Of a stretch of DNA of 64,000 nt, positions 24,001 through 27,000 are shown piece after piece. A program made the position numbers. Source of the stretch: Escherichia coli (lineage in GTDB: Bacteria; Pseudomonadota; Gammaproteobacteria; Enterobacterales; Enterobacteriaceae); NCBI RefSeq assembly GCF_016026235.1, contig NZ_CP065614.1, one strand, 5' to 3'. The first letter of the stretch is position 1, and each line of letters begins with the position of its first letter.

Positions 24001-27000
24001 CCTGCTTTCTCCTCTTTCTGGTTTTCAGCCCCCATCATCGGTTGAGTTTCGGGAGCCGCGGTTTTGACGTTTTGCGGGGACCTGCCTTTTGTTCCCTCCG
24101 GTATTCACCATCACCTTTTTGAGAACCTTCGCCGCAAGGGGCATCACTGCCACGGCCGGAAACGACTGTCCGGGGATGTACATTTCCCCCCTGGACTGGC
24201 GGAGACGGTTGTGGCTGTCTTTGCCCCCGGCGACAGGGGCTTAAACAGGTGAATGGCACCGGACACAACAACGGGCAGGGACCCGCCGCAACGACGTGAA
24301 GCGCGGTTTGCGAAACGGCGTTGCGCCTTACATCCCGGCGGCCTTTTGCCGGGATGCAGGGAGCGCAGGCCACGGCGCGACAGAGGCGGCGCGACCGGAA
24401 CGGTCGCTGCAAGCCCGGGGTTTCGCGTCAGGGATGGAAGCGTGCGACTGAAAGTCGCTTCAGATATTGATTTGCGTAGACATATGACAAATCCCGCTAT
24501 TCCGGTAGCGGTAGCCTAATCAGAATGGCGTTGCTGGTAACGGCAAGGTCATAAGCTCTGATGACAACGTACTCTCCCTCAGGAAGGGTAAGTCGAGCCG
24601 TGAGGTGAGACGATCGTCTGCAAGCATCATGCGGACAGGAGGCAAGGCTGATCGGTATGGTTAACACACGTGAACCAGTGATAAAGATCATAACCCTGTA
24701 ACAGGTCAAAGATGCTGATAGACCTGAACTAAAAGGTGTGAGGCTGGTTATCCTATGCTTCCTGAGGATACCCGGACACTAAAGCCTCTGGTCGAGAGCT
24801 GGAACCTAACCCGATCTGTATCTGAAGTGAAAACAGGTAAGCCCGTACTTTTGCCCTCAGGGCAAGCGAACCGTAAGGAACGCTGTTGAAAATGCGGGTA
24901 GAGGAGGATGGAAAAAGCAAATGGCCATCTGTAATGGATGGTATAGGGGTTCAAAATTTGCCCTAACGCGAAAGCGTGCAGACTTCCATCTGGTCTTTAA
25001 TCACATGAAACGCCGGAAAGCAGTCTGAAACAGGAGGCAGGCAAGATGAACACGCTAATTAAGGTGTCTGCGGCCCCGCACCTCGGTAGCTGGCACACCA
25101 TCAACTGGAAGCGACAGTACCGAACGGTGAGACGGCTCCAGACGCGGATTGTGAAGGCAACACAGGAGAAGCAATGGCGTAGAGTCAAAGCTCTGCAACG
25201 TCTGCTGACCCGCTCGTTTGCAGCCAAAGCACTGGCTGTCAGACGGGTTACTGAGAACTCCGGGCGTAAAACCCCGGGAATCGACGGAAAAACTTGGAGC
25301 ACGCCGGCAGAGAAATGGAATGCTATCAACAACCTGAGGAGAAACGGCTATAAACCGAGTCCTCTGAAGCGAGTATATATTCCCAAATCCAATGGCAAAC
25401 TCCGCCCGCTGGGTATCCCCACGATGAAAGACAGAGCTATGCAAGCGCTCTACCTGCTCGCTCTGGAACCTGTCGCGGAAACGACTGCGGATCGTAACAG
25501 CTACGGCTTTCGTCCCCACAGAAGTTGTGCTGATGCAATCGAACAGGTTTTCAACAATCTGAACCGGAAAACATCGGCAACGTGGGTTCTGGAAGGGGAT
25601 ATTAAAGGGTGTTTCGACAATATCAGTCATAAATGGTTACTGGAGCATATCCCTATGGATAAACGGATCCTCCGTAGCTGGCTGAATGCCGGATTTATGG
25701 AAAAAGGAAGATTGTTCACTACTGACGCTGGTACACCTCAGGGTGCCCCCTGCTCACCAGTACTGGCAAATATGTGCCTGGACGGACTGGAAACAATTCT
25801 GACGAACCGTTTCGGGCGGAAAGGCACAGCCAAGGCCAGTAAATCCAAAGTGAACTATGTGCGTTACGCCGATGATTTCATTGTGACAGGAATTTCGCGA
25901 GAAATACTGGAAAGCGAAGTAAAACCGCTTATAACTGCATTCATGCAGGAAAGAGGGTTGCTCCTGTCAGAAGAAAAAACGACGGTTACTCACATAAATG
26001 ACGGCTTTGACTTTCTTGGACAAAATGTCAGGAAATACAAGGGGAAGTTACTTATAAAACCCTCTAAACATAACCTGAAAATGTTCCTTAATAAGATTAG
26101 AGCCACCATCGAAGGTAATAAAACTGCCAAAACAGACACACTGTTCAAACGGCTAAACCCTCTGATCAGAGGTTGGACCAACTACCACCAACATGTAGTG
26201 GCAGCCGAAACCTTCAGGTACGTCAACTTCCAACTCTGGAAAAAGATATGGCGATGGTGTCTCAGGAGACATCCTTCCAGAGGTAAACGATGGATACGCC
26301 GCAAATACTTCGACGAAAGCTGGAGGCTTCACTCGAAGGACGCCGACGGTCATCGTTGGGTACTGTATAAAGCATCGACAATACCTATACGACGCCACAT
26401 CAAAATAAAATCCGAAGCAAATCCATACGCCCCCGAGTGGGAGTCTTATTTTGAGAAAAGACAGGCATTGATATGGCTGAAATCTCAAAATGGCAGAAAC
26501 AGGATTGTAGCAATATGGAGAAAACAGGAAAAACGCTGCCCAATATGGGGACAATCGTTCAGCCAGGAAACGGGTTGGGATATCCATCACATTGTGCGAA
26601 AAACACAAGGGGGGAGCGACAATCTGGATAATCTAGTGATGCTGCATCCGAACTGCCACCGTCAACTCCACCACAGTAGTGAAACCGGCTCTCAGTATTG
26701 GGGGCTTATAAAGGCTTGAGCGGAGTGCGGGGAAACTCGCACGCTCCGTTCTTAGGGGGCGGCGGCGCAGCAATGTGCCGCTGCTACCCGACCCGCCAAG
26801 GCGGAGACAGCTTCGCTGGCTCCGTTCACGACAGCCAGCCCCGCCAGGGGGACGCCCGGGAAAGCCATAAACAGGAGAGGAGAGGAACGGAAAGAAGAAG
26901 AGGAAGAAGAACAATAACAGGCACGGTAACCACAGAAAAATAACATCAGAAAAAAATATTCCGGACACATCATAAACGGGAAGGGTAACGGGCGACGCGT

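Follow-up and report, generated by a model that had tools for sequence, protein, structure and literature searches.

The 64,000 nt of Escherichia coli DNA analysed here (the window; RefSeq assembly GCF_016026235.1, contig NZ_CP065614.1), which belong to a Shigella/EIEC-type virulence plasmid, are best read as carrying a retrohomed CL/IIB1 group II intron at 24442-26792 and the wrecks of two twintrons at 28816-29708 and 54035-54866, a joint reading to which we give a probability of roughly 0.88. The annotation of these loci is thereby corrected to at least three separate intron lineages and two dead twintrons, in place of “two decayed copies” of one element. We regard the finding as sound yet ordinary and of low to moderate interest, and none of these results alters the current understanding of group II introns. 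On the virulence plasmid, the attack of one retroelement on the catalytic codons of others has left direct traces, a behaviour already known from Photorhabdus, Methanosarcina and Bacillus. The plasmid also holds a rare intron of the EcI5/TeI4h type, apparently intact, for which more than one third of complete E. coli genomes have the homing site. The features are collected in Table 1; genome loci used for comparison are labelled L003, L009, L011, L012, L013, L014, L015, L016, L017, L018, L019 and L020.

Table 1. Group II intron features in the window, with the evidence for each.
Feature	Position	Strand	Evidence or remarks
Complete group II intron, type closest to CL/IIB1 (EcI5/TeI4h-like), with endonuclease domain	24442-26792	+	2,351 nt; empty-site ends, RF02012, RF00029
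5' exon: IBS2 CAGGG (24429-24433), IBS1 GGAAGC (24436-24441)	24429-24441	+	complementarity to EBS2/EBS1
Ribozyme domains I (about 24448-24836), II (24841-24899), III (24900-24998)	24448-24998	+	RNAalifold consensus
EBS2 CCCTG	24694-24698	+	complementary to IBS2
EBS1 GCTTCC	24757-24762	+	complementary to IBS1
Intron-encoded protein, 557 aa: RVT_N, RT (YADD present), maturase X, HNH	25046-26719	+	Pfam, TIGR04416, 6ME0_C
Domain V, AGC triad and GAAA loop	26718-26751	+	RF00029; sequence read directly
Domain VI, bulged A at 26786, 7 nt from the 3' splice site (position -7)	26752-26792	+	RF00029; direct reading
Host RT fragment A (outer intron of relic twintron A)	28816-29452	+	RVT_1, E = 7e-19
Inner intron relic A, first 256 nt (GUGUG..., domain I), P.l.I2-like class D	29453-29708	+	RF01999, 119.4 bits
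EBS2 of inner relic A	29682-29686	+	intron-exon pairing
Host RT fragment B (outer intron of relic twintron B)	54035-54434	+	two frameshifts; ends ...TAT GCC GAT GAC T
Inner intron relic B, positions 1-450 of a P.l.I2-like intron	54435-54866	+	RF01999, 116.9 bits
EBS2 (54664-54668) and EBS1 AGTCGTT (54693-54699) of inner relic B	54664-54699	+	intron-exon pairing
Lone domain V/VI fragment from a further group II intron, beside IS1	59322-59402	-	RF00029, 42.1 bits (gathering score 40)

The original prediction had placed a complete group II intron, with GUGCG at its 5' end, a canonical domain V and an uninterrupted RT/maturase/HNH reading frame of 557 aa, between 24442 and 26800, and all of this was borne out apart from the end. 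The intron starts with GTGCG (GUGCG in the RNA) and closes with ...CGAC; alignment with an intron-less allele sets its 3' boundary at ...CAGGGATGGAAGC/CCGCCAGGGCGG (the slash marking the junction), with 26792 and not 26800 as the last base. The empty allele reads ...GGAAGC/CCGCC, with no base gained or lost and no target duplication. Rfam model RF02012 (group-II-D1D4-7) matched at 24493-24642 with 120.9 bits and RF00029 (domain V/VI) at 26716-26792 with 60.1 bits over the full model (1-77), the sequence of domain V being GAGCGGAGUGCGGGGAAACUCGCACGCUCCGUUC.

Modelling of the fold, which had been put forward as a check on the element, gave for domains I to III an RNAalifold consensus of six related introns that is supported by covariation. 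Compensatory changes occur in 82 of its 158 pairs, compared with 41.5 in shuffles and 16-21 when the partners were slid; 93.6% of the cells are paired, against 34-45% with slid partners, and none of 500 shuffles attained the observed values. All six positions of EBS1 (GCUUCC) pair with IBS1 (GGAAGC) and all five of EBS2 (CCCUG) with IBS2 (CAGGG), and both loops covary with their exons at three independent sites (window/L019, L017 and L014). The 3' exon begins with C in the window intron as well as in L017. Another candidate for EBS1, CTTCCATC at 24983-24990, was rejected: it is kept in L017 though the exon there differs. A Klebsiella IncX3 relative (L020) shows imperfect EBS/IBS pairing and was left out of the support.

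The reading frame is free of stops and encodes the Pfam domains RVT_N, RVT_1, GIIM and HNH, with the catalytic YADD motif and the H-N-H histidines present and a TIGR04416 score of 380 bits (cut-off 300). The closest solved relative of the protein is the TeI4h RT (6ME0_C, E = 1e-187, residues 15-545), with which it aligns end to end and reaches 628 bits, compared with 142 for LtrA (ML class) and 125 for GsI-IIC. Judged by this comparison with solved RTs and by the presence of HNH, the intron appears closest to the CL/IIB1 class, whose members include TeI4h and EcI5 (PMC2882425). It shares the RVT_N, RT, X and HNH architecture with EcI5 (E. coli pO157) and TeI4h (Thermosynechococcus elongatus), its RNA likewise displays GUGCG, EBS1/EBS2 and six-domain features, and, like EcI5, it is plasmid-borne in Enterobacteriaceae. 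Unlike these two, it has another sequence and another target, a GC-rich leading-region spacer. The intron was not found on pO157-type plasmids, which carry the empty site instead.

The insertion point lies in a GC-rich intergenic repeat/spacer of an F-type leading region. Among 5,426 complete E. coli genomes, 1,976 carry the empty spacer and only four the full intron, which thus occupies about 0.2% of the site-carrying genomes. On EIEC pINV-type plasmids, this element recurs at 99.8-99.9% identity under the annotation ltrA, and a 90%-identical copy in E. albertii sits at the same site. Within the window, no more copies of the homing site were found at up to three mismatches, and the target spacer revealed no promoter-like hexamers. 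Its single strand is predicted to fold into several short GC hairpins (z = -3.3), and a single long Frpo-type single-strand promoter hairpin was rejected.

A cousin of the window intron, the widespread E. coli plasmid intron encoding ltrA WP_001091723.1 (L017), is of the same type and of nearly equal length (2,349 against 2,351 nt) and lies in the same orientation in the same leading-region spacer, upstream of hypothetical, DUF1380 and antirestriction genes. The final 88 nt are 100% identical, the overall identity being about 67%, whereas its EBS1 and EBS2 are different and matched to a different exon sequence. In contrast to the rare window intron, this cousin is common and multi-copy, with 314 genomes and chromosomal sites too; found at up to 6 places per genome, it is clearly mobile in E. 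coli. Whether this cousin might be EcI5 was considered; no O157 plasmids were among the matches listed for the L017 type. The sense strand is the transferred (T) strand in both introns, so that reverse splicing could use the single-stranded DNA entering the recipient during conjugation, and the two may be a CL/IIB1 sub-lineage adapted to the GC-rich spacer that recurs in IncF leading regions.

What the window intron needs at the sequence level in order to splice and move appears to be intact; its retromobility is plausible, its transcription and activity here are presumed, and presence/absence polymorphism at the insertion site is the one indirect line of evidence for activity. In retrohoming, the excised RNA together with its RT/maturase/HNH protein would base-pair through EBS2 and EBS1 with the target CAGGG..GGAAGC and, between 24441 and 26793, reverse-splice into the + strand; the opposite strand would be nicked by the HNH domain, and the RT would copy the intron into DNA. 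At somewhat under even odds, the intron is instead structurally intact but inert, a recent passenger whose + strand is untranscribed and which neither splices nor moves. It lies on the opposite strand to all neighbouring leading-region genes, a search for a sigma-70-like promoter upstream of it found none, and several relatives are cut by IS elements; given these features and its low occupancy, it may be silent or barely mobile. The confinement of every copy found to one leading-region site, and the four genomes with the intron as against 1,976 with the empty site, also fit inertness. Decay, however, is seen neither in the reading frame nor in the catalytic motifs or the EBS/IBS pairings, and the E. 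albertii copy still keeps a full-length reading frame at 90% identity, which suggests selection for function or repeated homing; the mobility of the L017 cousin likewise argues against an inert element. Were the window intron active, it would be handy for studying how introns spread on conjugative plasmids, either as a natural system or as a scaffold for gene targeting.

The second and third loci had been described as frameshifted and truncated RT fragments, each followed by a nearly identical module of about 230 bp. Truncation holds for both, but the two frameshifts are confined to fragment B, while fragment A keeps one frame throughout, broken by an in-frame TGA at 29065-29067. The module is real as well, 248 of 256 bases being identical between 29453-29708 and 54435-54690; its second copy had been set at 54455-54700, about 20 nt too far to the right, and runs to 54866, past the shared part. 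Identity begins exactly at GTGTGCC, the RT sequences upstream differ, and in both relics the module starts with GUGUG one base past the YADD codons (junction A, TACGCCGATGATG/GTGTG at 29440-29453; junction B, TATGCCGATGACT/GTGTG at 54422-54435). As judged from the 256 to 432 nt that survive and from full-length relatives in other genomes, the shared module derives from a third lineage, being the 5' end of a P.l.I2-like intron of class D that is predicted to lack an endonuclease.

Fragment A, cut at its N-terminus beside an IS4-family transposase fragment, ends in the YADD codons (29440-29451) plus one nucleotide. It is a mosaic, in which 29332-29452 shares 97.6% identity with the RT of the P.l.I2-like lineage itself and the remainder stems from another lineage; the nucleotide-level match to the inserted lineage covers the final 121 nt only, and the recombination point lies at the conserved motif PQGG, about 29332. 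From this joining of a P.l.I2-like 5' exon to another RT lineage, we infer an extra recombination step. The inner relic is 97.7% identical to positions 1-256 of a full-length Citrobacter copy and was broken off just before EBS1 by DNA with an IS66-like tnpA gene. Its EBS2 pairs at 4/5 positions (an exon C facing an EBS2 A), the -1 base is mismatched and EBS1 is deleted.

Fragment B has lost its 5' part beside IS3-family orfB DNA. An intact, IS3-inserted ltrA with 86% identity to fragment B, in E. coli EcPF16 (L018), reads straight through the site (...GATGACT/TCGTA, encoding RYADDFVLIV). The match of fragment B to the inserted lineage is weak and at the protein level only. Host RT B is an IS3-homing relative set apart from E.c.I4; E.c.I4 itself was considered and rejected, the nearest full-length relatives being few and merely 82-86% identical. 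About 18 nt are deleted within the inner relic, which shares 92.4% identity with the Citrobacter copy and pairs with its exon at 5/5 (EBS2) and 7/7 (EBS1) positions.

In other genomes, the same 5' end follows RYADD plus one nucleotide at 9 of 11 loci. The nine further junction loci belong to Photorhabdus, Citrobacter, Acidithiobacillus, Paraburkholderia and Caballeronia, with diverse outer RTs and with outer introns that fall into three Rfam D1D4 types. The junction position is identical in both window copies and eight of these nine loci, the exon of L015 being 2 nt shorter. Excision of the inner intron of about 1,881 nt restores the outer reading frame in five complete copies (L009, L011, L012, L013 and L016), where the inner 3' terminus meets the next base of the same codon and nothing is gained or lost. 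The full-length inner protein (L012) reveals RVT_1 and GIIM without HNH. Nearly all loci reach 5/5 and 6-7/7 in EBS/IBS pairing, covariation is seen in a Cupriavidus relative (L003) sited in a non-RT target, and an A-to-U change in L012 fits the exon of that locus. GCGUA at intron position 230, which pairs and covaries, is the EBS2 of the inner intron. An upstream CGGCAUA was rejected for this role, as it is unchanged in the Cupriavidus relative despite the different exon.

A reading of 28864-29700 and 53995-54700 as decayed copies of a single lineage, each an RT fragment with its own downstream module, is very unlikely and already contradicted. The order of RT fragment and module is the same at both loci, both lie amid IS fragments, and the last 121 nt of fragment A do come from the module's own lineage. 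The fragments, however, are different genes belonging to different introns, their identity collapses just upstream of the junction, and fragment B is nearest to IS3-inserted introns of another type. The module, in turn, matches a domain I model and begins with GUGUG; it is therefore a 5' end, which cannot lie downstream of its own RT, and the same junction recurs in unrelated RT genes whose frame is restored once the inner intron is removed. Of the repeated insertion into IS-rich DNA that had been suspected, the repeated insertion of a second lineage remains, while its target was YADD-coding RT sequence and the truncation by IS elements came afterwards. Still less credible is that the junctions arose when RT genes recombined, or templates were switched, at the conserved YADD nucleotides. 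These codons, short and common to all RT genes, might be a seed and host RT A, recombinant at PQGG, a precedent, but the joined partner is the exact 5' terminus of an intron and no RT sequence, and such exact termini, the lossless codon junctions of the complete copies and the covariation of the intron loops with the exon are the signature of reverse splicing rather than of recombination.

Retrohoming into twintrons being the preferred reading, a P.l.I2-like intron would have entered the (R)YADD coding DNA of resident introns at least twice, one base past the second Asp codon. EBS2 (5'-GCGUA) would pair with UAYGC and EBS1 (5'-AGUCGUU) with GAYGAYN, a G facing each synonymous pyrimidine, so that a G-C or G-U pair can form whichever codon is used. 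With G at every synonymous position (UAY, GAY, GAY), one intron would be able to invade RT genes of any codon usage; if true, the YADD lineage would parasitise other retroelements in general and might inactivate them in nature. We think it improbable that both proposals hold, i.e., that the window intron and its L017 cousin are a leading-region-specialised CL/IIB1 sub-lineage and the YADD lineage a codon-blind general parasite of retroelements. Later IS insertions and deletions would have taken away most of both inner and outer introns. Neither an inner 3' end nor a downstream outer RT was found in the window by blastn and tblastn; only 5' junctions survive, no outer intron is continuous on both sides, and the reading frame for the domain IV RT/maturase of an endonuclease-less intron is missing in relic A and stops short after about 14 codons in relic B. 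The pieces are relics of RYADD-homing introns, not functional members of that class, and all four are incapable of function now.

Insertion into the RYADD motif, giving rise to twintrons, has been described for the endonuclease-less, IIB-like (class D) introns P.l.I2, M.a.I5, UA.I3 and B.th.I3 (Tourasse & Kolstø 2008, PMC2504315); an earlier description of YADD homing is that of Dai & Zimmerly (2003; as cited in Tourasse & Kolstø 2008 and Zimmerly & Semper 2015). The window relics share the target of the P.l.I2 lineage of Photorhabdus luminescens, RYADD codons plus one nucleotide, and its EBS1/EBS2 loops; Photorhabdus loci bear the same 5' end, and identity to the full-length Acidithiobacillus and Citrobacter copies is 86-98%. 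Unlike P.l.I2-type introns, the window keeps only the first 256 and 432 nt, without intron-encoded protein, domain V or 3' junction, and one of the host RTs is a recombinant and P.l.I2-like in its turn, a case of self-invasion. Homing of a mobile intron into a conserved site of another is likewise seen for TeI3 in TeI4 of T. elongatus and in the nested arrays of Methanosarcina acetivorans. In the T. elongatus twintron, however, the insertion falls between two start codons and leaves both introns functional, whereas in our relics the catalytic YADD codons are hit and neither partner is alive.

Intron fragments of the Shigella virulence plasmid (pINV) have been catalogued before, namely S.s.F1 (432 bp) and S.s.F3 (256 bp), both P.l.I2-like, and S.d.F1 (545 bp) (Leclercq & Cordaux 2012, PMC3522654, Table S2); the catalogue puts the similarity of pINV fragments to P.l.I2 at 87-90%. 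Those entries agree with the window relics in plasmid family, sizes and closest relatives, and, judging from size and host distribution, the catalogue names probably denote our coordinates. Parts 1, 3 and 4 of Table S2 and, as far as term searches reach, the text and tables list the fragments separately and make no mention of YADD junctions; the Escherichia/Shigella rows of the same three parts do not contain the full-length intron.

E.c.I3, which homes into IS679/IS66, was considered as the source of the module or of the isolated domain V/VI fragment and rejected: neither matched any chromosome, and hence neither matched the E.c.I3 carriers E. coli ED1a or 536. The domain V/VI fragment, missing from the original prediction, lies outside the two twintrons and was found on pINV-type records only.

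Two relics of an inner intron of the P.l.I2-like, class D, endonuclease-less lineage (copies A and B) lie in the window, identical at 248 of 256 bases, with near-identity starting exactly at GTGTGCCACGAAGG. The original prediction had described this module as a nearly identical ~230-bp segment behind both RT fragments, with slightly misplaced coordinates, and had read the two places as decayed copies of a second intron lineage. That one element was inserted in both places stands, but the RT fragments do not come from one lineage: upstream of the junctions are two different RT genes, with common features only at the motif level around PQGG and YADD. 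The common segment matches the domain I model RF01999 with 119 bits in copy A and 117 bits in copy B, this match beginning 62 nt past GUGUG, while that of the full-length intron of the same window begins 51 nt past GUGCG. A domain I match so near GUGUG means that the common segment is an intron 5' end and not the tail after an RT within one intron. Both copies are directly preceded by TAY GCC GAT GAY plus one base, the codons of the RT active-site motif YADD. Copy A stops at 29708, just short of EBS1, cut by DNA with an IS66-like tnpA gene; copy B lacks ~18 nt internally and breaks off at 54866, ~14 codons into its own ORF, and comparison with locus L005 revealed that it reaches beyond the module. 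L005 itself (E. coli pOkiPb01694_1, ~2950-3430) is a further rearranged P.l.I2-like relic, in which an RT-coding fragment is fused to domain I at position ~145, from where the intron runs on into the IEP start.

A scan of the 22-nt module core against genomes of 100,044 species returned 11 loci, nine of them with the same 5' end after (R)YADD plus 1 nt in quite different RT genes (outer motifs, for example, FERYADD, FARYADD, MVRYADD, WCRYADD, and VNRYADD). These junctions were found in Photorhabdus, Citrobacter, Acidithiobacillus, Paraburkholderia, and Caballeronia. The Rfam order is nested, namely outer domain I, inner domain I, inner domain V, and outer domain V; the outer introns of these twintrons are of three D1D4 types, and removal of the ~1,881-nt inner element rejoined the outer ORF in frame in five complete cases (for example RYADD/CNILV, RYADD/GLVHC, and RYADD/MIVHC). 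The inner protein, in its full-length version, has RT and maturase domains and no HNH. In the Caballeronia sp. twintron L015 (1397-1411) the 5' exon ends with ...TATGCGGACGA, two bases shorter than at all other YADD junctions, which could reflect decay or an alternative boundary.

Target recognition can be followed in two loops of the inner intron: 5'-GCGUA (position ~230) is complementary to exon UAYGC at -13 to -9, and 5'-AGUCGUU (position ~259) to GAYGAYN at -7 to -1, with scores of 5/5 and 6-7/7 at almost all loci. Each intron G stands opposite a synonymous pyrimidine, so that, judging from the pairings across the loci, a G-C or G-U pair would form under either codon choice. At a non-RT site (AAUUUCAAGUGGG/), a Cupriavidus relative has these two loops changed to AAAUU and CCCACUU, a covariation that supports the EBS assignment. 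This locus (L003, Cupriavidus sp. KK10 plasmid p1, 3952-7827) is 79% identical to the inner intron, and a serine-recombinase-like gene (771 aa) running in the opposite direction splits its intron ORF.

The RT fragments upstream of the copies are remains of outer introns. Both had been called frameshifted, which is correct for fragment B with two frameshifts, but fragment A keeps one frame, broken by a single TGA. Its last 121 nt (29332-29452) share 97.6% identity with the RT of the P.l.I2-like lineage itself, while the remainder (28816-29331) belongs to another RT lineage with ~37% protein identity (an estimate from the 48% overall figure) and, in blastn, no nucleotide similarity to the P.l.I2-like RT; the mosaic switches at 29332, in the conserved PQGG motif. 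On this two-part identity, fragment A appears to be a P.l.I2-like intron invaded by its own lineage, which would later have recombined with another RT near PQGG, and the mosaic points to possible recombination between RT genes of resident introns. Fragment B shares 86% identity with an intron that occupies an IS3-family transposase gene of E. coli EcPF16, and in the window it adjoins IS3-family orfB DNA, which is consistent with an IS3-homing intron minus its 5' part. An intact relative of this host runs uninterrupted through the site (...TATGCCGATGACT/TCGTACTT, RYADDFVLIV). Altogether, the earlier observation is confirmed with small corrections of coordinates and frame, and its interpretation was half right.

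Intron-related and replicon features of the window
Feature	Position	Strand	Evidence or content
F-type leading region	21.8-28.2 kb		SLT transglycosylase gene by transfer origin, followed by genes for DUF932 and antirestriction proteins
RnaG sRNA, virA-like ORF, FinP/traJ 5'UTR elements	51086-52798 and 20974-21085		RnaG 158.5 bits
Full-length intron, domain I	24493-24642	+	Rfam RF02012, 120.9 bits
Full-length intron, fold domains	I ~24448-24836; II 24841-24899; III 24900-24998	+	Consensus fold; domain I large
EBS1 and its exon partner	24757-24762; 24436-24441	+	GCUUCC with GGAAGC
EBS2 and its exon partner	24694-24698; 24429-24433	+	CCCUG with CAGGG
Full-length intron, ORF	25046-26719	+	RVT_N, RVT_1, GIIM, HNH
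Full-length intron, domain V/VI	26716-26792	+	Rfam RF00029, 60.1 bits
Host RT fragment A	~28816-29452
Host RT fragment B	54035-54434
Start of common segment	29453 (copy A), 54435 (copy B)		Alignment of both loci
Lone domain V/VI fragment	59322-59402	-	RF00029, 42.1 bits, barely above gathering score; adjoins IS1

The window belongs to a virulence plasmid of the pINV type, from Shigella or enteroinvasive E. coli (EIEC). That the replicon is an invasion plasmid whose transfer region is F-type follows from RnaG, the virA-like ORF, and the FinP/traJ 5'UTR elements; Rfam also matched three ALIL pseudoknots of the IS3 type and an antisense traG RNA, and the best-matching DNA comes from plasmids of EIEC and Shigella boydii. 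Downstream of the transglycosylase, the leading-region genes are encoded on the minus strand.

Alignment of both flanks of the full-length intron to an intron-less IncF plasmid (joined exons ...CAGGGATGGAAGC/CCGCCAGGGCGG) sets it at exactly 24442-26792 (2,351 nt) without target duplication; the predicted start with GTGCG was right, and the predicted end at 26800 was 8 nt too long. The domain V is canonical, as proposed, with its AGC triad, and the bulged A of domain VI, at 26786, lies 7 nt before the 3' end. Five relatives were aligned, two of them outer introns (Paraburkholderia, Caballeronia) and the others from E. albertii (90% identity, same site), a common E. coli plasmid intron (67%), and a Klebsiella IncX3 intron. 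Across the first ~600 nt, covering domains I-III, their consensus fold with the window intron has 27 helices and 158 pairs, 93.6% of cells paired and compensatory changes at 82 pairs; no shuffle matched the observed pairing and compensation, and slid partners paired at 34-45%. Both exon pairings are intact, and the EBS1/EBS2 columns change together with the exon in the E. coli cousin (GCGCAC/UCGGC, exon GCCGAAGGUGCGC) and in Paraburkholderia (GUGUGC/UCAUC, exon GAUGAAAGCGCAU), covariation that confirms EBS1 and EBS2.

The RT/maturase/HNH ORF is uninterrupted, in agreement with the original prediction; PGAP annotates it as ltrA, and the protein scores above the NCBIfam equivalog cut-off. Its alignment with the TeI4h RT (PDB 6ME0, E=1e-187) runs from end to end, and it is much closer to that protein than to LtrA or GsI-IIC. 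EcI5 and the T. elongatus introns are mutual closest relatives, both CL/IIB1 (PMC2882425), and with the TeI4h match this places the intron provisionally in CL/IIB1.

Splicing or mobility of this intron in the window is plausible. The element is without decay anywhere, its site occurs both occupied and empty, and the same-site copy at 90% identity keeps the full ORF. That it is an inert passenger is possible, though we lean against it. Speaking for that alternative, the intron is antisense to every neighbouring gene, and a search for a sigma-70-like promoter upstream of it found none. Moreover, of 5,426 complete E. coli genomes, 1,976 have the joined-exon site uninterrupted, at a median of two places per genome, yet at least 80% of the intron occurs in only 4, with IS-truncated copies in four more.

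All elements belong to known kinds. YADD homing is already published (in PMC2504315, where Dai & Zimmerly (2003) is cited), and twintrons at conserved sites also occur in T. elongatus and Methanosarcina. On Shigella virulence plasmids, Leclercq & Cordaux (2012) record 256- and 432-bp P.l.I2-like fragments and an RT fragment of 545 bp, and they also mention one P.l.I1 copy 'truncated by P.l.I2' (PMC3522654); the full-length intron is absent from the Escherichia/Shigella rows of Table S2, parts 1, 3, and 4, of this catalogue (PMC3522654). To this, the present analysis adds that it reads the pINV fragments as two independent relics left at YADD junctions, gives the YADD-homing lineage a wider host range, and proposes the EBS/codon-wobble logic.

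The homing site of the full-length intron (joined exons 24397-24441 and 26793-26837; locus L021, 800-1135) is part of a GC-rich spacer repeated in IncF leading regions, and is spanned by a PGAP-predicted plus-strand hypothetical ORF (WP_012896899.1, 111 aa). The 3'-most 88 nt of the intron (26705-26792) are 100% identical to the cousin at L017 (NZ_CP025917.1, 1246-3594), the two being ~67% identical elsewhere, which suggests that their 3' end may have been exchanged. This cousin (ltrA WP_001091723.1) occupies the same leading-region spacer in L017, and is also inserted in the chromosomal genes rfbK and gntT; 314 of the 5,426 complete E. coli genomes carry >=80% of its length, at up to 6 places per genome. 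The lone domain V/VI fragment is unlike both intron lineages studied and was found only on 8 pINV-type E. coli records.
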